Assembly: GCA_965369655.1 (NCBI GenBank) | Contig: CBDUQR010000033.1 | Coordinates: forward strand, 1-35,056 | Direction of reading: 5' to 3' | From: an uncultured bacterium | Lineage (GTDB): Bacteria; Zixibacteria; MSB-5A5; JAABVY01; JAHJOQ01 | DNA length: 35,056 nt | Part shown: in pieces, positions 2,623 through 17,731 of the stretch | Layout of the letters: each line of letters opens with the position of its first letter | How positions within the stretch are numbered: position 1 is the first letter of the stretch | The notes under the pieces: generated by a model | The model's database searches: none | What the model was told of the DNA's origin: nothing | What the model saw: only the letters and a program-made list of their open reading frames with translations | Program-made: the position numbers and the translations under genes

Positions 2623-2821
2623 GAGGTTGTCTCAAAAGTGCTAATGAACTTGAGCTGGAAGCTGACTCTGTCGCTCCCGCGGAGGCGGGAGCCTATTTAA
2701 CGATAACCCATTCAATAGATTCCCGTGATATCCTGAGCACAGCGAAGGGCCTCCGCGGGAATGACGGTACTTTCTTTCGCAAACGTGACCACCAACCTTT
2801 CAGGCCTTTTGGGACAGCCTC
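2623..2821. mobile_element. Non-autonomous MITE (199 bp) with imperfect TIRs and a 4-bp TCCT target duplication
   Basis: Left GAGGTTGTCTCAAAAG, right CTTTTGGGACAGCCTC; TCCT at 2619-2622 and 2822-2825; a partial second copy starts at 32238. Confidence 0.8.
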
Positions 2822-2864
2822 TCCTCGTCTGCCCCATTCTTGCGCTGACATCGGCAGATGTGGA

Positions 2865-3019
2865 GAGATTGTCCCAAAAGTGGGTCGTGTTCCGAACCTG
2901 ATGAAATCAGGTGAGAAACGCGACACTTCTATCTTCTTATCTTGGAGTCGGGTTTCTTGCAGGCTCCGCCTGCTGCGGAACGCCGACCTACTGGAGAATG
3001 GGACTTATGGGACAACCCC
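2865..3019. mobile_element. Second MITE (155 bp) with related TIRs and a 4-bp TGGA target duplication
   Basis: Left GAGATTGTCCCAAAAGT, right ACTTATGGGACAACCCC; TGGA at 2861-2864 and 3020-3023; removing it restores the hairpin GGCAGATGTGGACATCTGCC. Confidence 0.8.
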
Positions 3020-3308: not shown

Positions 3309-5060
3309 TTATTCGAGTGTAATCGTGATCCCCCATCTCGCCGGATCGTCAGGTCTGGTGGAGTTCCAGTTCCCGAATGAATGAGAATCGTCGGTAATAT
3401 AGAAGGCCTCGTATGAGCCCTTGTCGAGATGAATGATGTCATCAAACACGCGGTTTTTCTTTGCGCCGCCTGCGTGACGAGTCTTCCTGTATTTCATCTC
3501 CCAGACTACGCGTCCGGTCCTGGCGTCCTCGATCCAGCTGTAGTCATACATCTCGCTACGAGTCCCCTCTCCGATGGAGTATATCCTGATATCTGAAGAC
3601 TTATCGAGTGTGAACTCGCGGCTCTCCTCCTCGTAATCGCCAACCTCAATTATACTCACGAGCGTATTTTCGCCCAGCGCGGGACGGTCTGATACAACGA
3701 AAATCGACTTGTCGAAATCGTCGCCGATTCCATAAATAGTAACGCCATACTGCCGCTGGTCTATGGGAGGTGATAAATTCCAACGTCTGTAGGAGTGGGA
3801 TCCATCGGAAACATAATGCAGGACGTAGCTACCCGCCTCAAACTCTGCATTCCCGACGAATCGCCTGTTCTTGGTGGAACCTCCGGCGTGCTCTGTGTTG
3901 CGTTGAGTCATTTCCCACACGCGGTCAAATGAGTTCATATCCTCGATCCAGGCGTAGTCTGAGAACCCGTCGCCGTACTTGTCATACTCACCGATTGCAT
4001 AGATGTGCAGAGTCGCCGGTTTCTCGATAGTGAAATATCGAGTCTCATACTCATCGTTCCCGACGCGCGTGATGGAAACCAGCTCTCGCGACGACTGATC
4101 GTCTGTGTATGGTTTGACCGATGAACGGCTCGCTGCATCTTTCACCGAGATGGTTATCCCCCATCCATAGGGATCGTGGGGCGACGGCATATTCCAGTCC
4201 TCGGGTGAGTGAGAATCATCGGTGGAATAGTAAACGATATAGTTGCCTTTCGGCAGAGTGATATCTTCATTTGCGACCCTGTTCTTGCTGGCTCCGCCTG
4301 CCGGTTCTGTGTTCCACCGCTCCATCATCCAGACTTTTTCTCGAGTGTCGGCGTCGATGATCCACCCATAATCGACCATAATCCTGTCGCTCTTCGAGTA
4401 CTCTCCGATCGCATAAATACTCAGAGGCATTTCTCTGTCGAGCGTGAAACCTTCGCTCTCGTAGTAGTCGTCGTCAACAGCGGCAAGGTGAATGATCGTA
4501 TTGTCGTCTCTGGTTCTCGGCCTTGCAATGGTACGGAATGCATCACTCTCGGTAGTAAGCTTGAATTCATACTCCTCGACATAACGGTCCTTGCCTGAAA
4601 ACGCCTCTCCGAGTACAACAATGAGATCTTTCAGGCCGTCGACCTCCAGATTTGTACTGAAAGCATACATGTGTCCTGAAAAGAAATATGCCGTGTATGA
4701 ACCCGGCTGCAGCTTTATCTCTCCACTGAACTCTCGCAGATCACTCCGAGGAGTACCGCGATCAGTGTACTCATACTCCATCAGCCATTCCAACTGGCGT
4801 TTGCCGTTGTTGAATATCCAGCCGTACGCATGGAGCTCATCCGATTTCCTGCTGCCCGCTCCGGTCGCCTCGATTTTCACCGTGAGCGGAGCGGTCACCT
4901 CGAATGTTCTCTCTTCGAGATCGTCCCCCCTCATATCGTCGAAATGTACAATGGTATTGATATCCGCCTGTGCCACTGCAGTGAAGATCAGCAGCATCCA
5001 CCCGAGAAAAAACGCTGCCACAGCCGCTATGATCCAGCCCTTCAGGCTATCCATACTCAA
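3309..5060 (-). CDS. Secreted hypothetical protein with four tandem ~130-aa homologous domains
   Basis: N-terminal signal/hydrophobic segment; recurring motif IYAIGE...DY.WI.D..T...VW.M....T..AGG..KNR...G.Y...Y..D.SHS...WN. Confidence 0.85.
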   Translation of the reverse strand: MSMDSLKGWIIAAVAAFFLGWMLLIFTAVAQADINTIVHFDDMRGDDLEERTFEVTAPLTVKIEATGAGSRKSDELHAYGWIFNNGKRQLEWLMEYEYTDRGTPRSDLREFSGEIKLQPGSYTAYFFSGHMYAFSTNLEVDGLKDLIVVLGEAFSGKDRYVEEYEFKLTTESDAFRTIARPRTRDDNTIIHLAAVDDDYYESEGFTLDREMPLSIYAIGEYSKSDRIMVDYGWIIDADTREKVWMMERWNTEPAGGASKNRVANEDITLPKGNYIVYYSTDDSHSPEDWNMPSPHDPYGWGITISVKDAASRSSVKPYTDDQSSRELVSITRVGNDEYETRYFTIEKPATLHIYAIGEYDKYGDGFSDYAWIEDMNSFDRVWEMTQRNTEHAGGSTKNRRFVGNAEFEAGSYVLHYVSDGSHSYRRWNLSPPIDQRQYGVTIYGIGDDFDKSIFVVSDRPALGENTLVSIIEVGDYEEESREFTLDKSSDIRIYSIGEGTRSEMYDYSWIEDARTGRVVWEMKYRKTRHAGGAKKNRVFDDIIHLDKGSYEAFYITDDSHSFGNWNSTRPDDPARWGITITLE

Positions 5061-9038: not shown

Positions 9039-9857
9039 CTACTGGCTCCTTGATTTCTCAGACGCCTGCTTCATCGTATCGAGCTTGTTTCTGAACGTTT
9101 GCATTGCCCTAAACTGCTTTCCCCAGAACTCCTGGGATAGCGCATCGACAATATTAACGTACGCCTCGAAAAAGGCATGAAGCGGCATGTCCAAATCCTC
9201 CAACTTAGGTCGAGCCGACCAACAGTTATGAACAGGGTCGTAGAATTCATACAGAGTGAACTGCGAAGAATGTACATACTTCGAAAACAGATCAAAGACA
9301 GTCTTGTAATAATCCCCCATGCCTGCTTTCTTGGCAAGTTCGTCCATCTTTTGGCCAAGCCAAAAATCATTGTATTTCTTGTCATGATACTTCAGGTTGA
9401 GATTTTTCAATTCTCCACTGAACACCTGTATTGAATCCAGGTCACCTCTCTCATTTGCTATGCTAAGCGCATGATGAATTCCTTTTCTCTGTCGAAATCT
9501 GAGATAGGCAAAGAACTCCTCGGAAAGGCTCTCCATGTCAGATGCTCCATGTTGCTGAATATATCTCAATTGAATGAGTGCTTCGACCACCGGCCTAGCA
9601 AGTATGAAAGATTCTACTTTGTGTCCGATGCTTGCGACCAACCACAGGCTCACTCCGTGAGAAGTGCTCTTGAAGAACAGATACAAAAGAAATCGCCTAA
9701 AGGCACTCTCATCCTCTGGTATCAACCGAGCCTCATTCAGTTCATCGATTACCCTATCGGAAAAGAGAAGCAAGTCCCTTGTTAGATTCAAGTAATCCTT
9801 AAATTGCTCATACACCTGTTGATCGACGGGTTTTAATATCTGATCTAGTGCGAGCAT
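9039..9857 (-). CDS. DUF5677-like (HEPN-like helical) protein, AT-rich
   Basis: ARPVVEA and Y..VF..FSKYVHSS motifs resemble DUF5677; AAAGGAAG RBS before ATG 9857. Confidence 0.6.
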   Translation of the reverse strand: MLALDQILKPVDQQVYEQFKDYLNLTRDLLLFSDRVIDELNEARLIPEDESAFRRFLLYLFFKSTSHGVSLWLVASIGHKVESFILARPVVEALIQLRYIQQHGASDMESLSEEFFAYLRFRQRKGIHHALSIANERGDLDSIQVFSGELKNLNLKYHDKKYNDFWLGQKMDELAKKAGMGDYYKTVFDLFSKYVHSSQFTLYEFYDPVHNCWSARPKLEDLDMPLHAFFEAYVNIVDALSQEFWGKQFRAMQTFRNKLDTMKQASEKSRSQ

Positions 9858-9936
9858 GTGACTTCCTTTGGAATCCGACCACTGGTACCCCACCCAGAGT
9901 GCAACGTCGGGTGGGTTTATGTCTCAAAATATATAA

Positions 9937-10047
9937 GGGCGGTGCCCTAAATGAGTAGGTGCTCCAGAAAACTGGATTATGACATAGTCGTCCTGACACC
10001 CTGAGCTGAAAACTCATGCTCAGTACCTGGACCCAGGGTCACCGCCC
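9937..10047 (-). ncRNA. Candidate structured RNA, copy 1 (unassigned family)
   Basis: Closing stem GGGCGGUG-A-CCCUGGGU/AUUUAGGG-CACCGCCC, internal hairpins, possible AUGAGU/ACUCAU pseudoknot; downstream of a promoter. Confidence 0.6.
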
Positions 10048-10066
10048 AAATGACATTACCATCAAT

Positions 10067-10095
10067 ATTATACCCCCGGCCTGACAAACCTTCAA
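10067..10095 (-). promoter_or_regulatory. Sigma70-type promoter TTGAAG-N17-TATAAT
   Basis: Near-consensus hexamers with 17-bp spacing, about 20 bp upstream of the structured element. Confidence 0.7.
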
Positions 10096-10156
10096 GTATA
10101 ATCGTTGCTTTCATCTATGAATTTCATAGTCGTCCGTGCTCTGGGTGAACTATAGG

Positions 10157-10867
10157 CTACTCAGGCTGCCAAACCTCCCACACTTTGCCCACCAGGTTTG
10201 GTCCCGGCTTAAGTGTAGTCTTTCCCGGTTCCCAGCCCGCAGGGCATGCTTCAGCGCCCTTGGTTTTGCGAACGAGCTGAAATGCGTGAACTTGTCTGAT
10301 TGTCTCCTCAATCTTACGGCCAACAGGTGGTGTCATCACTTCCATAGCCTGAATTACTCCGTCAGGATCAATGAGAAATCGTCCCCTGATATTGATACCG
10401 TTGGCTTCATCATAGACACCATACACTTTTCCGAGATTGCCTGCTCCATCAGCTACCATTGGCCAGGGAATCCCATCTTTGGTCATTTTGGAAAGCTCTT
10501 CCTCTTCCCATATTTTGTGGACGAAAACGCTATCCGTTGATACAGAGAGGACTTCGACTCCAAGCTTCTGGAGTTCATCAAACTTGCCGGCGACCGCCGA
10601 CAATTCGGTTGGTCAAACAAAGGTGAAATCACCTGGGTAGAAACAAAGCAAAACCCACTTACCGAGATAGTCAGACAGCTTGATATTCACAAACGCGCCC
10701 TTGTGATAAGCAGGGGCTTCGAAATCGGGAGCCTTACCTCCGACCTTTGCCATCACCATGATACTGCCTCCTTCTTTCGATTCATCTTTTGTCGCTGTGT
10801 CTGATTCGGCAACTTCGCCGATAACCGTGCCAGTCGGTTTGGCACATCCAACAGGTTCATCGGGCAT
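10157..10867 (-). CDS. prxU: Selenocysteine-containing AhpC/Prx1 peroxiredoxin (PrxU-like), copy A; TGA at 10613-10615 read as Sec
   Basis: [16 protein letters not shown] is in frame at the peroxidatic Cys position (canonical FTFVCPTE); resolving ACPAGW; SECIS-like hairpin; AGGAGG RBS. Confidence 0.92.
10584..10603 (-). promoter_or_regulatory. Bacterial SECIS element, copy A
   Basis: UUGUCGGC-GGUC-GCCGGCAA stem-loop starting 10 nt 3' of the UGA, with a G/GU-containing apical loop. Confidence 0.8.
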
Positions 10868-10992
10868 TGGACACCTCCTATGTTTCGTGCCGGCAGATCC
10901 TTCGAAGCTCAGGACTCGTGTCCACATCTGCCGACCACTGGTACCACACCCAGAGTGCATCGACGGGTGGGTTTATATATCATAATATATAA

Positions 10993-11103
10993 GGGCGGCG
11001 CCCTAAATGAGTAGGTGCTCCAGAAAACTGGATTATGACAGAGTCGTCCTGACACCCTGAGCTGAAAACTCATGCTCAGTATTTGGACCCAGGGTCACCG
11101 CCC
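10993..11103 (-). ncRNA. Candidate structured RNA, copy 2 (5' of prxU copy A)
   Basis: Four substitutions relative to copy 1, all in loops or junctions or pairing-compatible; promoter TTGGAT-N17-TATTCT at 11122-11150. Confidence 0.6.
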
Positions 11104-11239
11104 AAACGACATTTCTTTAATAGAATACCCCCGGCCTGACAAACATCCAAGTACAATCTTGGCATTTGTCTTTTCCCTCGGGGATCGGGATCAGCGACCG
11201 AGAATTTCATAGTCGTCCGTACCCTGGGTAAACTACAAG

Positions 11240-11950
11240 CTACTCGGGCTGCCAAACCTTCCACACTTTGCCCACCAGGTTTGGTCCCGGCTTGAGTGTC
11301 GTCTTTCCCGGTTCCCAGCCCGCAGGGCATGCTTCAGCGCCCTTGGTTTTGCGAACGAGCTGAAATGCGTGAACTTGTCTGATTGTCTCCTCAATCTTAC
11401 GGCCAACAGGTGGTGTCATCACTTCCATAGCCTGAATTACTCCGTCAGGATCAATGAGAAATCGTCCCCTGATATTGATACCGTTGGCTTCATCATAGAC
11501 ACCATACACTTTTCCGAGATTGCCTGCTCCATCAGCTACCATTGGCCAGGGAATCCCATCTTTGGTCATTTTGGAAAGCTCTTCCTCTTCCCATATTTTG
11601 TGGACGAAAACGCTATCCGTTGATACAGAGAGGACTTCGACTCCAAGCTTCTGGAGTTCATCAAACTTGCCGGCGACCGCCGACAATTCGGTTGGTCAAA
11701 CAAAGGTGAAATCACCTGGGTAGAAACAAAGCAAAACCCACTTACCGAGATAGTCAGACAGCTTGATATTCACAAACGCGCCCTTGTGATAAGCAGGGGC
11801 TTCGAAATCGGGAGCCTTACCTCCGACCTTTGCCATCACCATGATACTGCCTCCTTCTTTCGATTCATCTTTTGTCGCTGTGTCTGATTCGGCAACTTCG
11901 CCGATAACCGTGCCAGTCGGTTTGGCACATCCAACAGGTTCATCGGGCAT
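11240..11950 (-). CDS. prxU: Selenocysteine-containing peroxiredoxin (PrxU-like), copy B; TGA at 11696-11698
   Basis: Same sequence as copy A except four substitutions near the 3' end (VWKVW versus VWEVW). Confidence 0.92.
11667..11686 (-). promoter_or_regulatory. Bacterial SECIS element, copy B
   Basis: Hairpin identical to 10584-10603. Confidence 0.8.
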
Positions 11951-12075
11951 TGGACACCTCCTATGTTTCGTGCCGGCAGATCCTTCGAAGCTCAGGACTC
12001 GTGTCCACATCTGCCGACCACTGGTACCACACCCAGAGTGCATCGACGGGTGGGTTTATATATCATAATATATAA

Positions 12076-12186
12076 GGGCGGCGCCCTAAATGAGTAGGTG
12101 CTCCAGAAAACTGGATTATGACAGAGTCGTCCTGACACCCTGAGCTGAAAACTCATGCTCAGTATTTGGACCCAGGGTCACCGCCC
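12076..12186 (-). ncRNA. Candidate structured RNA, copy 3 (5' of prxU copy B)
   Basis: Identical to copy 2, with the same promoter motif at 12205-12233. Confidence 0.6.
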
Positions 12187-12385
12187 AAACGACATTTCTT
12201 TAATAGAATACCCCCGGCCTGACAAACATCCAAGTACAATCTTGGCATTTGTCTTTTCCCTCGGGGATCGGGATCAGCGACCGAGAATTCCATTGTCGTC
12301 CGTACCCGGCAGATCCTTCGTCAAACTCAGGACGCGCGAGCGGGCGTGAGCTACTGTCAACTCGGCAACAATGAAAGTACGCACA

Positions 12386-12415
12386 GAGAAAAGGCCTCGA
12401 GTACTCGAGGCCTTT
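12386..12415 (-). terminator. Intrinsic terminator after the large secreted-protein gene
   Basis: Perfect palindrome AAAGGCCTCGAGTACTCGAGGCCTTT with a T-run on the minus strand, 30 bp after the stop. Confidence 0.75.
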
Positions 12416-12444
12416 ATGAGTAGTCTATAGAATCAGACGATGAT

Positions 12445-15400
12445 CTATTTCAACAGAACCATCTTTCTAATTTCACTGTATTGTCCGGCGGTCGCTTTAT
12501 AGAAATAGATGCCTGAGGCAACCCGCGTTCCGCCGTCGTTGTCGCCGAACCATTTGATGACAACAAGGCCGGCCTCAGCGTATCCGCTCATCGTCCTGAC
12601 CAGTTGCCCCTGCACGTTGAGTATGTCTACTCTCCACTCAGACGCTTCGGGCAAATACATATCAAACTCAGTCTCCGGATTGAACGGGTTCGGGTAATTC
12701 TGCGACAGGCTGAACCTGCCCGGCATCACCCCCGCCGTCCTCTGATTCACCGTAAGCTGATTTCCATAGTAGTCGGCAAAATCGCTGTGCACCAGACGCA
12801 GTTCCCCATCGCCCGCGACCGGTATATTCAACAGGATGTTGTCGCCCGCTGCAATACGGTTTGTCGTGAAGCTGTATATCAGGATTTTCATCTGATCTCC
12901 GTCAATGCTGTACATGACCTCCATCGACGAAGCGTCGCCCTGCAGAATCGGGGCGCCCGGTGTGATCCTGTCGGGATCGAAATCAAACACGAAGTATCCG
13001 CCGCCGATAGTTGTTCTCGAATCAGACGATATCTGATACGAGTCGGCGTTCTTTGTGATACCGATGTCTATCTGATCGGCGAAGTGCGCAAGCTTCGGAA
13101 TCGGCTGCGCATCGCCTGTCAGAATCCTGATCAGGTATACCAAGTCGCCGACAGTCAAAGTGTTGCCGTCGGCATTGACATCACTCGCGGCGATCTGTCC
13201 CGGCGGATTGATCGTAAAGACCGACATGCCCCAAATGAAGTAGTTCGTGTACAGCACACCGTCAGCGATTTCGTTGGCGACATTGTTAAGATTCATATCC
13301 CCGCGCAAGTCTATCGAGTCGGGGCTGATGATACATATCCCGCCGTTGTTGAATATCACGCATCTCAGTGGAGCTGTCTTGCCGCCAACAAGGCAGGTAT
13401 CCGGCGCGCCCACATTGGGGTAGCGAGCGGATTCCGGGTAGTTGACGTCATCGAACTCGTCCCAGACCACGCCGTTGTGATCGAGAATGAGCTTGTCCAC
13501 GAAAAACGTATCGCCACTAATCGAGGAAAAACCGTTGTCGCCACAATCAAGCCAGTAGAACTTCACCGGGAAGAACATGCCGCCGAAATTCACATCGTCG
13601 GTCGTTCTGAAATGCAACTGAGCAATCACACCGTCCGGCCAGAATGCGTCCGGAGGTGGATGGCTCGCTCCGTTGTTGATGTCAGCGATGCCGACCATGC
13701 GAACGACTCCATCGGGACACGGTCCGCCGCCGCAGTCACCATCCCCAAGGTAACGATACGTGAAGTACTCCCATCCCGTGGCGCCCGCTCCGATATTCGC
13801 ACCGAGGAATGTAAACGCTGTGACGTCGAACTGTACCAGCAGGTCAAATCCGCCGACGCCCTCCTGGAAATCGCCGATGACGTCAAGAACGACTTCAGAA
13901 CCGTTGTACACACAATTCTCGGTCTCATCGATCCTGATCGTCATACAAGAAGCCGTGTCGCAAATATCAACCGGCCTGATCGTCAGCAGCATCGACACAT
14001 CGTCATAGGCGCCGCAGAGATCGGTCACGCGGTAACAGAATTCATACGTCGTGTCTTTCAACACCGGAGTGAAACAGGTCATCAGCGTTCCCGGGTCGAA
14101 TGTGCCCGGGCCGCATGTCTGCGTCACAGTCAGTACATCTGTCACATCCGGGTCGTCGATAGTAATGCCGACGAAGCAGAGTTCTTCGGGTGTGGCGTCC
14201 GGTCCGCAATAGAGCACGTCGATAGTCGTATCCTCAGCCGCAATGCTCGGCGCTGAGTTGAGCACGACCGTGATTCCGACCGTATCAGTGTCAGATGCGC
14301 CGCATTCATCCTGTACCCTTATGATAAACTCGTACAGACCTGCCGCAGGCGGAGTGAAACAAATCATACCGTTCTCAGGGAACACGATTCCGGAACCCGA
14401 TATAAGTTCGAAGAGGAGCACGTCCATCGGGTCTGGATCGGAATAAGGATTCTCGAAACATATCTGCTCAGGAGAACAGAGCAGCCAGGTCGTATCATTT
14501 GCGGCATCAAGCTCAGGCGGGTTGTTGAAGACAACTGTTACAAAAATATCATCAGCTTCATACTCGCCGCATGCATCAGTAGCGCGCACGATGAAATAGT
14601 AGCTGCCCGCAGTGTCGGCGACGAAACAGACTTCTTCATCATTGAGGAAACCGTTTCCAACCATCAAGTCGACCACAGGCTCTTCCCCGTCCGGATCAGT
14701 CACGGTATAGCTGAAGCAAACGGTATCGCCGGGTTCGCATGCGACTGCCGTGAAGTCCGGCTCGACATCTAATGAGGGGGGTTCGTTGACATAGACAGTC
14801 ACACATATCTGATCTTCGTCATAGGCCCCACAGATATCGGTCGCCCGAACCGTGAGGCAGTAAGTCGTATCTTTGGTAGCGGGGAAACATACCTCGCCAT
14901 TCTCGTAGTAGCCGATCGGCGTGACATCCACGACGACCTCGCCATCGTCGTAGATCATCACCGGGAAGCAGACCTCGCCCACGGCACACAGCGAATCGAT
15001 GAAGTCGTCAGGCAAATCGACTGTCGGATTGCCGTTCAGCCTGATCGTTACGGACGTTTGAGCTTGATCGGTTGCCCCGCACTCGTCAGTCACCTTGAAT
15101 TCAAAGATGTATGTTCCGGCGGTATCCGGCAGGAAACAGAACATGCCGGTTTCGAAATCGATGTTGCCCGGCAGGCCTGCAATCTGCTCGTAGATAAAAC
15201 TCTGCCCAATATCCGGATCATCGACCTCGATCACGAAACAGACAGAATCACCGAGATCACACCAGGAAAGCGTATCGGCTTCCGGCAGTGTAATATTGGG
15301 ATCGCTATTGAGAACAATTGAGACAGTCGCCGTATCGTAGTCATATTCGTTGCAGAGATCGGTCACCTTGACCACAAACTCGTAATCGCCTTCAGCGGCT

Positions 15401-17295
15401 GGAGTGAAGCATATCTCGCCGGTCTGAGGATCGAGCGAACCAGGTCCACTGACGAGTTCAAGCGTCAGCACATCATTAGGATCGGGATCGTATGTCGACA
15501 CCTCGAAACAGACCTCGCTCAGGTCACAAACGAAAAGCGATGTGTCCGGAGCGATGACAACAGGCGGCGAGTTCAGTTCGATGTCGATTTGAATCGTGTC
15601 GTAATCCATCGACTCGCACGAATCCTTCACAGACACAATGAATGTATAACTCCCGGCTCCCGTTGGAGTGAAACAGACCTCGCCGGTGCCGCCGTCGATC
15701 TGTCCAGGACCGCTGTCGAGACTGATCGTAACAGGCTCGCCGTCAGGATCGCTCGCCTGCGCGATGAAACAGATTTCAGTCAGATCACACATGAAGTATG
15801 TCGTGTCGTCCGGCAGTTGTACCGATGGGGGAGCGTTCAGGTCGATCGTCACCAGCGATGTGTCGACATCAGACAGTCCGCAGTAATCGTCCCATAATGC
15901 AATTTCGATTTCGTATGTTCCATCCGCGTCCGCATAGATGCAGACTTCGCCTGTAGCCGGATTGTATGTGGCGGGCGGAGTGACTTCGACCGTAAACTCG
16001 CCTCCACCCGGATTGCTTATTTCGATCGGGAAACATATCTCCACTGGTTCGCACAGGAATGTATCGATGTCCGGCACGTAGATTATCGAAGGTGTCTGGG
16101 CTATGATCACAGTAATATCGACAGTATCAAGCGGACACCAGTATGGACACAGCGGATCGCTGGAACATTCTCCACTCCTGCTCAGACAGCAGTCATCTTT
16201 CGCGCGTATGACAAAACGATAATCGGCCGAACCCTCCGACCCGGGCAAGAAACAGACCTCTCCCGTCAGGGGGTCGATTCTTCCGAGACCTTCGACAAGC
16301 TCGAACTGGAGTTCATCGCCGTCATCGTCGTAGGCGTCGACTGTGAAGCAGATGCTGTCTGATGAACAGACAACCGTATCGAAATCTTCGGGCACGAATA
16401 TCTCGGGAGGACTGTTTATCTGATAGTCAATCGTAAATGTACCGTACACGACATTGCCGAGGTTGTCTTCGACGCGGAATATGAATTCATACAACTCGTC
16501 GAACGGGGCAGGATCGAAGCAATGATGAATCGTCGCAGAATCGACAATATTTACAATAGGAAAGTCACCCGCACCCGCGATCATTTTCACTTCCAGCGAA
16601 TCTCCCGAGCAGCTACTTCCTGATACGAAAATATCGAAACAGACCTCTTCAGGTGTGCAGACATTGAACACCATATCGTCAGGGACCTGAATAATCGGCC
16701 CATCGCAGCCGGTCCGGATCAGGATTATCAGATCGTTGAAGTCCCGGTCTCCGCCGTTCTTGAGATCTTCAAAGCAGACAAGGTATTCATTCTCATTCTG
16801 ACCCGTGGCGAACACCTTCGCGTGGTCGTACAAATCCCTGTTGTATGTCGGCTCGGTATACCAGGTATAGCCACCGCTAATGCCGGGAATGAAATAAAGA
16901 CCTATGCTCGAACCACCGTCGACAGAAAAGGTCACAGAGTCGTTGACCTCGTTCGACGGACTGAAAAGCTGCGTTTTCTGGGTCGAGTCCGTCGACACAT
17001 GGAAACCAGCCACAGACGATCCATAAGAAGATGAAAGCTTCTGAAGCAGGACCGCTACATTTCCGCCACCGGAAGCAGCAATTTCGGTCAGTCCCAACTC
17101 ATCGGCTGCGACGTCGATATCGTAGCCGAGGCTGTCGAAAATCTCCTGAAGCGTCGGCTCTCCGGCAGCCGTTGAAAGCAGCGAATCGAGCAACGCCTGA
17201 TCGCCTCCACCGGCCAGCGCGGCTGATCCGGACACGAGAAACAGCAGCAAGAGCAGCAGCTTTATTGTGACACTTCTGACAATACTATCAGACAT
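12445..17295 (-). CDS. Large secreted protein: DUF4114-like N-terminus, about 9-10 Cys-rich Ig/cadherin-like repeats, cohesin-like and dockerin-like domains, C-terminal FlgD-Ig/T9SS-like sorting domain
   Basis: Signal peptide; FEDL..GGDRDFNDL; repeated N.PP...C...VCF...DPD...ICFTP...G.Y.F...D.C; GGFDLLVQFD; RGDMNLN..ASDVNADG..DLVYLI; LSQNYPNPFNP..ASGIYFYK; AAGGAG RBS before ATG 17295. Confidence 0.88.
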   Translation of the reverse strand: MSDSIVRSVTIKLLLLLLFLVSGSAALAGGGDQALLDSLLSTAAGEPTLQEIFDSLGYDIDVAADELGLTEIAASGGGNVAVLLQKLSSSYGSSVAGFHVSTDSTQKTQLFSPSNEVNDSVTFSVDGGSSIGLYFIPGISGGYTWYTEPTYNRDLYDHAKVFATGQNENEYLVCFEDLKNGGDRDFNDLIILIRTGCDGPIIQVPDDMVFNVCTPEEVCFDIFVSGSSCSGDSLEVKMIAGAGDFPIVNIVDSATIHHCFDPAPFDELYEFIFRVEDNLGNVVYGTFTIDYQINSPPEIFVPEDFDTVVCSSDSICFTVDAYDDDGDELQFELVEGLGRIDPLTGEVCFLPGSEGSADYRFVIRAKDDCCLSRSGECSSDPLCPYWCPLDTVDITVIIAQTPSIIYVPDIDTFLCEPVEICFPIEISNPGGGEFTVEVTPPATYNPATGEVCIYADADGTYEIEIALWDDYCGLSDVDTSLVTIDLNAPPSVQLPDDTTYFMCDLTEICFIAQASDPDGEPVTISLDSGPGQIDGGTGEVCFTPTGAGSYTFIVSVKDSCESMDYDTIQIDIELNSPPVVIAPDTSLFVCDLSEVCFEVSTYDPDPNDVLTLELVSGPGSLDPQTGEICFTPAAEGDYEFVVKVTDLCNEYDYDTATVSIVLNSDPNITLPEADTLSWCDLGDSVCFVIEVDDPDIGQSFIYEQIAGLPGNIDFETGMFCFLPDTAGTYIFEFKVTDECGATDQAQTSVTIRLNGNPTVDLPDDFIDSLCAVGEVCFPVMIYDDGEVVVDVTPIGYYENGEVCFPATKDTTYCLTVRATDICGAYDEDQICVTVYVNEPPSLDVEPDFTAVACEPGDTVCFSYTVTDPDGEEPVVDLMVGNGFLNDEEVCFVADTAGSYYFIVRATDACGEYEADDIFVTVVFNNPPELDAANDTTWLLCSPEQICFENPYSDPDPMDVLLFELISGSGIVFPENGMICFTPPAAGLYEFIIRVQDECGASDTDTVGITVVLNSAPSIAAEDTTIDVLYCGPDATPEELCFVGITIDDPDVTDVLTVTQTCGPGTFDPGTLMTCFTPVLKDTTYEFCYRVTDLCGAYDDVSMLLTIRPVDICDTASCMTIRIDETENCVYNGSEVVLDVIGDFQEGVGGFDLLVQFDVTAFTFLGANIGAGATGWEYFTYRYLGDGDCGGGPCPDGVVRMVGIADINNGASHPPPDAFWPDGVIAQLHFRTTDDVNFGGMFFPVKFYWLDCGDNGFSSISGDTFFVDKLILDHNGVVWDEFDDVNYPESARYPNVGAPDTCLVGGKTAPLRCVIFNNGGICIISPDSIDLRGDMNLNNVANEIADGVLYTNYFIWGMSVFTINPPGQIAASDVNADGNTLTVGDLVYLIRILTGDAQPIPKLAHFADQIDIGITKNADSYQISSDSRTTIGGGYFVFDFDPDRITPGAPILQGDASSMEVMYSIDGDQMKILIYSFTTNRIAAGDNILLNIPVAGDGELRLVHSDFADYYGNQLTVNQRTAGVMPGRFSLSQNYPNPFNPETEFDMYLPEASEWRVDILNVQGQLVRTMSGYAEAGLVVIKWFGDNDGGTRVASGIYFYKATAGQYSEIRKMVLLK

Positions 17296-17731
17296 TGTTA
17301 CATCTCCTTGTATACAGCCCACTTATTGAGAATCTATAGATTTATTTTTATTTACCATCTTGCCGTTCTCTCGCAATACAAATGTGCATCTAACCAATAT
17401 CCTGCTATTCAGGACTGTCAAATTCCGGACTGATTTCAAGCACCTAAATAGAGCGAGTACGACAAAGCATGGACAACAATGGTACTGTAAATACATTCCA
17501 GCCTTCCGACTGGAACTCTCACCGAGCACAATATAGCAGAAGCAATTGAATTGTCAAGGCGTTTCTGGCTTCTAACGCTCTTCTAACATGTTGAAATTTT
17601 ACACACTTACAGAAATTTGATAAACTAACGCCTATAGGGAATCTCTGGTCAAAATCTGCGCAGTTTCTGCGTCAAATCCAAGGGTCGCAATACCGGTCCC
17701 GTCACATAAAGCTGAACTTCATGTGCGGCTG

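Follow-up and report, generated by a model that had tools for sequence, protein, structure and literature searches.

Structured RNA families conserved over many phyla are few, and the majority have proved to be riboswitches, ribozymes or the cores of RNA-protein particles. Collections of orphan structured RNA motifs of bacteria have been assembled by comparative genomics (Weinberg and Breaker, PMC2864571, as the opening of its abstract presents them). The subject of the present analysis is a small RNA element of 111 nt that occurs in three copies on the minus strand of contig CBDUQR010000033.1, from the assembly GCA_965369655.1 of an uncultured bacterium of the Zixibacteria; the whole stretch analysed, positions 1 to 35,056 of that contig, is called the window. 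Each copy is probably a self-contained gene of a conserved, uncatalogued small non-coding RNA of about 110-135 nt, which to judge from sequence comparison would belong to a free-standing structured family and would not be a leader linked to selenium or redox functions; the probability of this reading is put at about 65%. The family is new: it is an orphan, free-standing structured bacterial RNA without an entry in Rfam 15.

With the orphan motif RNAs the family shares a covariation-backed fold to which no function is assigned, an occurrence mostly in uncultured bacteria and the lack of a fixed neighbour. It differs from them in that it is spread over more than 12 phyla and yet present in about 3-8% of genomes, in that it apparently has a promoter of its own, and in a closing helix, P1, that would double as the terminator. 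Aptamers of the tetrahydrofolate (THF) and S-adenosylmethionine (SAM-I) riboswitch type are likewise about 100 nt long and combine a junction and a pseudoknot with near-invariant unpaired nucleotides, but the present family is not tied to a 5' untranslated region or to a class of genes, and it has no expression platform apart from P1. The Y RNAs, with YrlA, that accompany the Ro protein (Rsr) resemble it in a long bulged end stem, a U-run and a patchy distribution over phyla. In contrast to them, the family has no rsr or rtcB neighbour and no match to the Y RNA models of Rfam. Identity with Y RNA was rejected, as the TROVE/Ro domain (PF05731) was found in 0 of 151 genomes of a sample of the same phylum, 12 of which carry the RNA; the same model matched the controls Deinococcus radiodurans and Bacteroides thetaiotaomicron. 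The sRNA-Xcc1 of Xanthomonas is an integron-borne small RNA. Integron cassettes that lack an open reading frame (ORF) and have promoter activity have also been described (PMC6557892 and 10.1101/2023.11.21.568050, both as presented in title and abstract). The RNA gene is likewise a cassette in one Acidobacteriota bin, G156, and a few others, but it lies mostly outside integrons, extends far beyond a single genus and is elaborately folded in a conserved manner.

Three copies and their predicted fold

Two covariance models were used, R1, which was built from the window's three copies only, and R2, an improved model. The copies, with the helices and pseudoknot strands of copy 1, are the following.

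9937 to 10047, minus strand: small RNA gene copy 1, 111 nt, full-length match to models R1 and R2
10993 to 11103, minus strand: small RNA gene copy 2, same sequence as copy 3, model match
12076 to 12186, minus strand: small RNA gene copy 3, same sequence as copy 2, model match
Copy 1, RNA numbering: helix P1, 1-8 with 104-111, bulged A9, then 10-17 with 96-103
Copy 1, RNA numbering: helix P2, 25-30 with 42-47; P3, 48-52 with 86-90; P3b, 72-76 with 81-85
10012 to 10017, minus strand: pseudoknot strand AUGAGU in the P2 loop of copy 1, complementary to 9951-9956, covaries in relatives
9951 to 9956, minus strand: pseudoknot strand ACUCAU in J3/1 of copy 1, shares positions with the two innermost pairs of P1, covaries in relatives

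The initial annotation of the window had placed three minus-strand copies at these positions, and all three were recovered. Its comparison of copy 1 with copy 2 was reproduced as well: copy 1 departs from copies 2 and 3 at four positions, of which two lie in the junction and one in a loop, while the fourth changes a U-A pair to U-G. The copies fold into a 16-bp closing helix with a single bulged A, a three-way junction, the hairpin P2, and P3 with two small hairpins. The minimum free energy (MFE) fold contains the closing stem, the CUGAGC/GCUCAG hairpin, the GGUGU/GCACC stem and the UCCAG-UUUU-CUGGA hairpin, all of which the annotation had drawn by eye. The fold energies are -51.6 and -49.4 kcal/mol, with z about -4.6 against shuffles.

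Relatives, covariation and the pseudoknot

The annotation had proposed to collect homologs from related genomes. BLAST of the element gave no match in the 11 other genomes of the order, and the relatives were reached by covariance model only. In the 151-genome sample, R1 gave one full-length match in each of 10 further genomes, and R2 matched 12 genomes including this one, all at E <= 1.4e-11. R2 found none in the other 139 genomes, nearly all of which are more than 90% complete, a genome of the same genus (94%) being among them. When R2 was applied to a sample of the phylum of the Acidobacteriota bin G156, 5 of 151 genomes were positive. The RNA is thus rare and patchy, at about 3-8% of the sampled genomes.

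A pattern made from conserved words matched at least 119 stretches in a collection of species-representative genomes. R1 matched in full length at all 80 of the genome loci fetched, which belong to at least 12 other phyla and were picked by a pattern that fixes some columns, so that conservation in those columns is there by construction. The carrier bins bear the labels Acidobacteriota/Thermoanaerobaculia, Planctomycetota, 'Deltaproteobacteria'/Desulfobacterales/Syntrophaceae, Ignavibacteria, Anaerolineae/Dehalococcoidales, Gemmatimonadota, Nitrospirae, Verrucomicrobiota, Myxococcota, Binatia, KSB1, Latescibacterota, Calditrichia and Neomarinimicrobiota, with one Paceibacterota. Desulfobacterota and Chloroflexota are among the phyla reached, and none of the 80 genome loci came from a cultured carrier. 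A second pattern, drawn from P3/P3b only, matched at least 120 metagenome stretches, and R2 matched 77 of the 80 loci fetched from them, 74 in full length. The first pattern had no match in 2.9 million viral contigs, and blastn of one member (L083, 120 nt) found nothing in plasmid and phage collections.

Several genomes carry two or three near-identical copies. Bin G156 has three on one contig and bins G157-G159 have two each; in G072, two copies separated by 6.3 kb agree to 97% over a stretch of 240 nt that takes in the promoter. The G072 copies (C30:1-14000) bracket genes for DinB_2, DUF6144 and Abi_C proteins, which are followed by SnoaL-like, DinB_2, O-methyltransferase and hydrolase genes. 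On the metagenome contig L225 two copies are divergent, at 2752-2865 (minus) and 4148-4261 (plus), 1.3 kb apart, whereas the other clusters seen are co-oriented.

Conservation of the pairing was measured on 90 distinct sequences from genomes and 77 from metagenomes. Standard pairs fill 88.0% of the cells in the genome set, against 78.2% in shuffles, and 89.4% against 78.1% in the metagenome set; 26 and 22 of the 36 pairs, respectively, are altered on both sides. The covariation score is 0.341 in the genome set (0.155 shuffled) and 0.342 in the metagenome set (0.136 shuffled). In neither set did any of 500 shuffles reach it, and with slid partners it stayed at or below 0.084 and 0.066. Covariation among homologs, named in the annotation as a check on the RNA, is strong in both sets. 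It is found at nearly every pair of P1 and P2, and one pair of P3b alternates between UA, AU, CG and GC; P3 scarcely varies, and conservation of the inner G-U pairs of P1 is poor in relatives.

The U-G pair of P3 is present in 88 of 90 sequences. Because this pair is kept and G-U pairs are frequent, the strand of the RNA is fixed, which bears out the annotation's argument that the G-U wobbles mark the minus strand. The same observation bears on the possibility that the element acts as DNA, a miniature inverted repeat or recombination site whose palindrome is only RNA-like. The closing stem is indeed a 16-bp inverted repeat, the plus strand of the element folds almost as well as the minus strand (z -4.9), and this genome abounds in repetitive extragenic palindromic (REP) repeats. 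On the other strand, however, the P3 U-G pair and the many G-U pairs become C-A mismatches, and the promoter and T-run enrichment described below is one-sided. Also, the genome holds only three copies, at one locus, other genomes have one to three, and no target-site duplications were seen in the flanks of the 12 loci inspected. A DNA-level element is considered highly improbable.

The pseudoknot, which the annotation had proposed from AUGAGU and ACUCAU, joins the P2 loop with the strand that connects P3 to P1, and in relatives the two strands change together. Among the variants are CAGGUC/GACCUG, GAGAU/AUCUC, GAUGUC/GACAUC, CUAGGC/GCCUAG and CAUGGU/ACCAUG. A helix of at least 5 bp was scored for 74 of 90 cognate strand pairs in the genome set, compared with 17.8% of non-cognate pairs, that is, a loop strand and a 3' strand taken from two sequences, with at least 3 differences between their 3' strands over 7 positions. 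In the metagenome set, after 25 sequences were left out whose junction variant does not fit the anchor expression, the figures are 42 of 49 cognate pairs and 30% of non-cognate ones. An extension of P2 by UGA/UCA, suggested by the MFE fold, is paired in only 59% of the relatives' cells, and the pseudoknot was preferred to it. The near-invariant unpaired nucleotides are UCCAAGUAC, CAGGAC and AAUCC; in the metagenome set, for which the junction was left free, at least 97% of the sequences retain UCC and at least 80% retain AARUACC.

Transcription signals and neighbouring genes

The predicted signals that bound the three copies in the window are listed here.

10067 to 10095, minus strand: sigma-70-type promoter of copy 1, TTGAAG, 17 nt, TATAAT, 10/12 in the scan
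11122 to 11150, minus strand: weaker promoter-like site of copy 2, TTGGAT, 17 nt, TATTCT, 7/12 by hand count
12205 to 12233, minus strand: weaker promoter-like site of copy 3, same sequence as the copy 2 site (sequence repeat)
9927 to 9936, minus strand: U-rich tail after P1 of copy 1, equivalents at 10983-10992 and 12066-12075

The annotation had given each copy a promoter with 17-bp spacing. This stood for copy 1, where 19 nt separate the end of the -10 hexamer from the RNA (mostly 6-12 nt in relatives), but not for copies 2 and 3, whose TTGGAT/TATTCT sites fall under the threshold of the promoter scan. At the 3' ends of all three copies, P1 and the U-rich tail are listed as terminator-like sites, which look weaker here, with a broken U-run (UUAUAUAUU) and a P1 that is not extended into the flanks. 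Of 89 loci of the relatives, 23 have a sigma-70-like site of at least 9/12 upstream (2 of 89 controls) and 62 have a T-run after the closing helix (18 of 89 on the control side); in 42 of the 89, P1 is lengthened into the flanks by 3 bp or more. The combination of P1 and U-run resembles the end of an intrinsic terminator, and termination is predicted there.

The genes next to the RNA vary. Crude longest-ORF calls at 91 loci put the nearest downstream gene on the same strand as the RNA in 52 and in convergent orientation in 32, and gave no gene in 7. The 84 nearest downstream ORFs hold 129 Pfam families, each in at most three loci, so that the tabulation of downstream genes proposed in the annotation ties no gene family to the RNA. 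All-against-all clustering of the ORFs within 3-3.5 kb revealed no shared neighbour either, the clusters reaching at most 5 of 91 and 6 of 170 loci. Both results speak against assignment to the riboswitches or cis-acting leaders: such a class is positioned in the 5' untranslated region in nearly all members and precedes a coherent set of genes, neither of which is seen here. The annotation's fallback, an independent small RNA, fits both the promoter and terminator signals and the variable context.

Within the window the RNA copies stand beside the following features.

10120 to 12303, minus strand: two tandem 1083-bp units, each RNA gene plus REP plus prxU, found by self-comparison
10157 to 10867, minus strand: prxU copy A, selenocysteine peroxiredoxin (AhpC-TSA, 1-cysPrx_C), in-frame UGA at 10613-10615
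11240 to 11950, minus strand: prxU copy B, in a tandem 1083-bp unit, in-frame UGA at 11696-11698
9039 to 9857, minus strand: DUF5677 gene, 3' of copy 1 (PF18928, E 3.1e-17)
9889 to 9915, minus strand: GTAG-tagged REP hairpin, also at 10945-10971 and 12028-12054, genome-wide repeat

The prxU product matches NF040737 with 396.5 bits (cut-off 270), and the in-frame TGA falls within FTFVUPTE, at the peroxidatic position (FV-U-PTE). The gene that follows copy 1 had been called HEPN-like. Pfam gives DUF5677 and no HEPN family, and neither PADLOC nor NCBIfam matched it, so that the earlier name, and a link to defence, find no model behind them. The surrounding genes are ordinary chromosomal ones, for a TPR protein, a TldD/PmbA pair, a GH57 enzyme and an ABC1 kinase. 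Immediately upstream of copy 3, at 12445-17322, lies an ORF of 1625 amino acids with many repeated domains; its C-terminal tail resembles, by eye, a type IX secretion sorting signal.

The unit of RNA, REP hairpin and peroxiredoxin gene is the product of a very recent tandem duplication, or has been homogenised. At an offset of 1083 bp, 10120-11220 aligns with 11203-12303 over 1100 positions with 11 mismatches, none of them within 10218-11206, while the similarity of copy 1 to the other two copies spans only about 190 bp (9875-10065). Unequal crossing-over between two RNA copies probably doubled the RNA-prxU unit and so gave three RNA genes. Owing to this local duplication, the three copies in the window are not independent evidence for the family.

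The hairpin CCCACCC/GGGUG(G/U)G downstream of each copy, which the annotation had counted as part of the module, is a separate element that merely lies beside the RNA in this genome. By BLAST of the genome followed by a pattern count, it (CCCACCC...GGGTGGG) has 36 copies, 34 of them intergenic; 33 sites are outside the window, for example C55:916-942 and C62:4079-4105. It reads CCCACCCGRCG...TCTGGGTGGG followed by CTACCGG, with compensatory stem variants such as CCCATCC/GGATGGG, and most copies read GGGTGGGCTACCGG, which places GTAG next to the palindrome on the opposite strand. It is thus, like the REP/REPIN elements, a short GTAG-tagged palindrome, dispersed and intergenic, with compensatory stems. 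At the RNA relatives in other genomes it is not present.

In a scan of the window, the stretch from each RNA to the gene after it, prxU or the DUF5677 gene, showed no further promoter-like site. For this reason, these genes probably depend for their transcription on read-through past the terminators, which are rather weak. Read-through may be why the duplication of an RNA-prxU unit paid; it is regarded as a local by-product and not as the function of the family.

The annotation had preferred a cis-acting switch or attenuator, possibly linked to selenium or redox state. More generally, the element could be a leader, an attenuator or riboswitch-like device in which the terminator formed by P1 and the U-run is opened or closed to control the downstream gene, here prxU or the DUF5677 gene. 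Several observations suit such a leader: each copy in the window is followed by a co-oriented gene with no other promoter-like site in between, 52 of the 84 downstream genes called in the relatives are co-oriented, the overlap of the pseudoknot strand with the inner P1 pairs creates two competing folds, and the inner G-U pairs of P1 are badly conserved. On the other hand, 32 of the 84 genes are convergent, no Pfam family among the 129 recurs in more than three loci, and the outer part of P1, long, rich in G+C and often lengthened by the flanks, has the look of a constitutive terminator. The link to selenium fails on further counts. In the genome of the same genus (G011, L163:1501-2225), a single prxU with a TGA stands directly after a catalase gene, and the catalase-prxU spacer of about 110 nt holds no such RNA. 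Furthermore, 147 of the 151 sampled genomes of the phylum have selA and 12 have the RNA; by this marker, selenocysteine use is nearly universal in the phylum, and selenium use therefore does not mark the carriers of the RNA. A cis-acting leader is considered unlikely.

Some points nevertheless weigh against a free-standing gene. The co-oriented share of the downstream genes, 62%, is above an even split, and the gene calls behind it are crude. In the three multi-copy clusters inspected, those of this genome (G000), G072 and G156, the copies are co-oriented with most of the genes that follow, which leaves room for a cis effect on the neighbours. No partner was found, and no protein family co-occurs nearby. 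Finally, the alignments that gave the covariation scores were fitted to the model, and the genomes found by model only (12 and 5), together with the second pattern, offset the fixing of columns only in part.

Known RNA classes, integron cassettes and the possible role of the RNA

The element has no match in Rfam 15: gathering scores, applied to the whole window, returned none, and neither did a search of positions 9700-12500 at E up to 10. Among 20 relative loci, gathering scores returned only one unrelated tRNA, and at E up to 10 the consensus-like member L083 gave only chance-level matches on the opposite strand, to IhtA (E 2.8) and mir-1544 (E 4.4). These searches agree with the annotation, which had recognised no known riboswitch, ribozyme, tRNA, signal recognition particle (SRP) RNA or 6S RNA. 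Literature searches, at the level of titles and the openings of abstracts, gave no description of the RNA.

Individual classes were rejected as follows. ARAGORN found no tRNA in the window, the normal selenocysteine tRNA of the genome is on contig C17, and a 16-bp closing helix is unfit for a stack of acceptor and T-arm. The SRP RNA model RF00169 matches contig C76, which carries a normal small SRP RNA, and not the element. The 6S RNA is a rod of about 180 nt with a central bubble, and the element is a 111-nt three-way junction; the model RF00013 had no match in this genome or the 151-genome sample, so that it does not detect 6S RNA in this phylum. The known self-cleaving ribozymes (hammerhead, twister, pistol, hatchet and others in Rfam) gave no match at E up to 10.

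The element could still be a catalytic RNA, either of a new self-cleaving class or some other ribozyme. Its compactness, its three-way junction with a pseudoknot and the near-invariant nucleotides of that junction would suit this, and so would a patchy distribution over many phyla in a variable context, with several copies in some genomes. Twister, hammerhead and pistol ribozymes have a similarly patchy distribution over many phyla. Self-cleaving ribozymes, however, usually lie inside longer transcripts and not between a promoter and a terminator of their own, for which the present arrangement is atypical, and no Rfam ribozyme is matched. The catalytic reading is judged very doubtful.

In some Acidobacteriota the RNA gene has been taken up as an ORF-less integron cassette, and most members are found outside integrons. 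The attC sites of integrons are imperfect palindromes with cores RYYYAAC ... GTTRRRY. In G156, each of the three copies is bounded by attC-type sites (GCCTAAC ... GTTAGGC, 94-125 nt), one of which ends 38 nt upstream of the RNA and one of which starts 32 nt downstream. The cassette of about 280 bp comprises the RNA gene, its promoter and attC, and no ORF. It stands in an array (C9:12001-31000 and 31001-40000) that has no fewer than 10 attC sites and numerous short ORFs (90-180 amino acids), and an integron integrase is encoded on another contig (TIGR02249, 489 bits, above cut-off). In an automated test, 4 of 93 loci, L094 and L112 among them, had an attC-like site close behind the 3' end of the RNA, compared with 3 of 264 control windows, and the other 89 were negative; three more loci (L096, L065 and L079) were recognised in arrays by eye. 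In the window, no attC-like site flanks any copy, and the three hits of a relaxed scan lie elsewhere, two in coding sequence and one across a prxU 3' end. This genome has no match to TIGR02249.

These findings raise the possibility of a mobile promoter or insulator cassette, that is, integron-type DNA, selfish or in the service of the array, in which the signals matter more than the RNA. The attC sites on both sides in G156 and those attached in the other loci suit it, as do the co-oriented multi-copy clusters, the patchy distribution and the ORF-less cassettes with promoter activity cited at the outset. Yet most loci, the window included, show no attC (89 of 93 in the automated test), and this genome gave no integron-integrase match. 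Moreover, a promoter alone needs no 36 conserved pairs, covarying pseudoknot and near-invariant loops, and a terminator would block, not drive, the transcription of the next cassette. A cassette of this kind is considered quite unlikely.

Over the family, the RNA is built as follows. P1, made of 8 bp, a conserved bulged A and a further 4-8 bp, opens into the three-way junction with P2 and P3. The P2 loop pairs with the strand joining P3 to P1 to form the pseudoknot, and P3 runs into P3b across a conserved one-sided bulge (CAGGAC...AA), in which an optional hairpin may be present. If the element is a free-standing gene, the RNA would be transcribed in quantity from its own sigma-70 promoter, and the transcript would end at P1, often lengthened by the flanks, and the U-run. 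It would act in trans, UCCAAGUAC, CAGGAC and AAUCC forming a pocket or surface for a protein or small-molecule partner. A partner common to very different bacteria is suggested because the gene persists in more than 12 phyla without a protein gene of its own. The gene would be accessory and moved horizontally, in some Acidobacteriota as an integron cassette.

A further-reaching idea, tentative and held at rather low probability, is that the gene is an accessory trait made of RNA only. It would then be the first elaborately folded RNA gene to cross phyla as a unit of promoter, RNA and terminator, sometimes as an integron cassette, and might be of use to its host by itself, as an aptamer or decoy against a toxin, an antibiotic or a phage factor directed at a universal target, or as a new trans-acting ribozyme.

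For the annotation of this genome, the tempting label of a selenium or redox leader would be wrong for the RNA, and its triplication is a recent local duplication. For the family, the rarity of the gene, its own promoter and terminator and its occasional presence in cassettes suggest an RNA that is selected and exchanged alone as an accessory gene, which is an unusual pattern.

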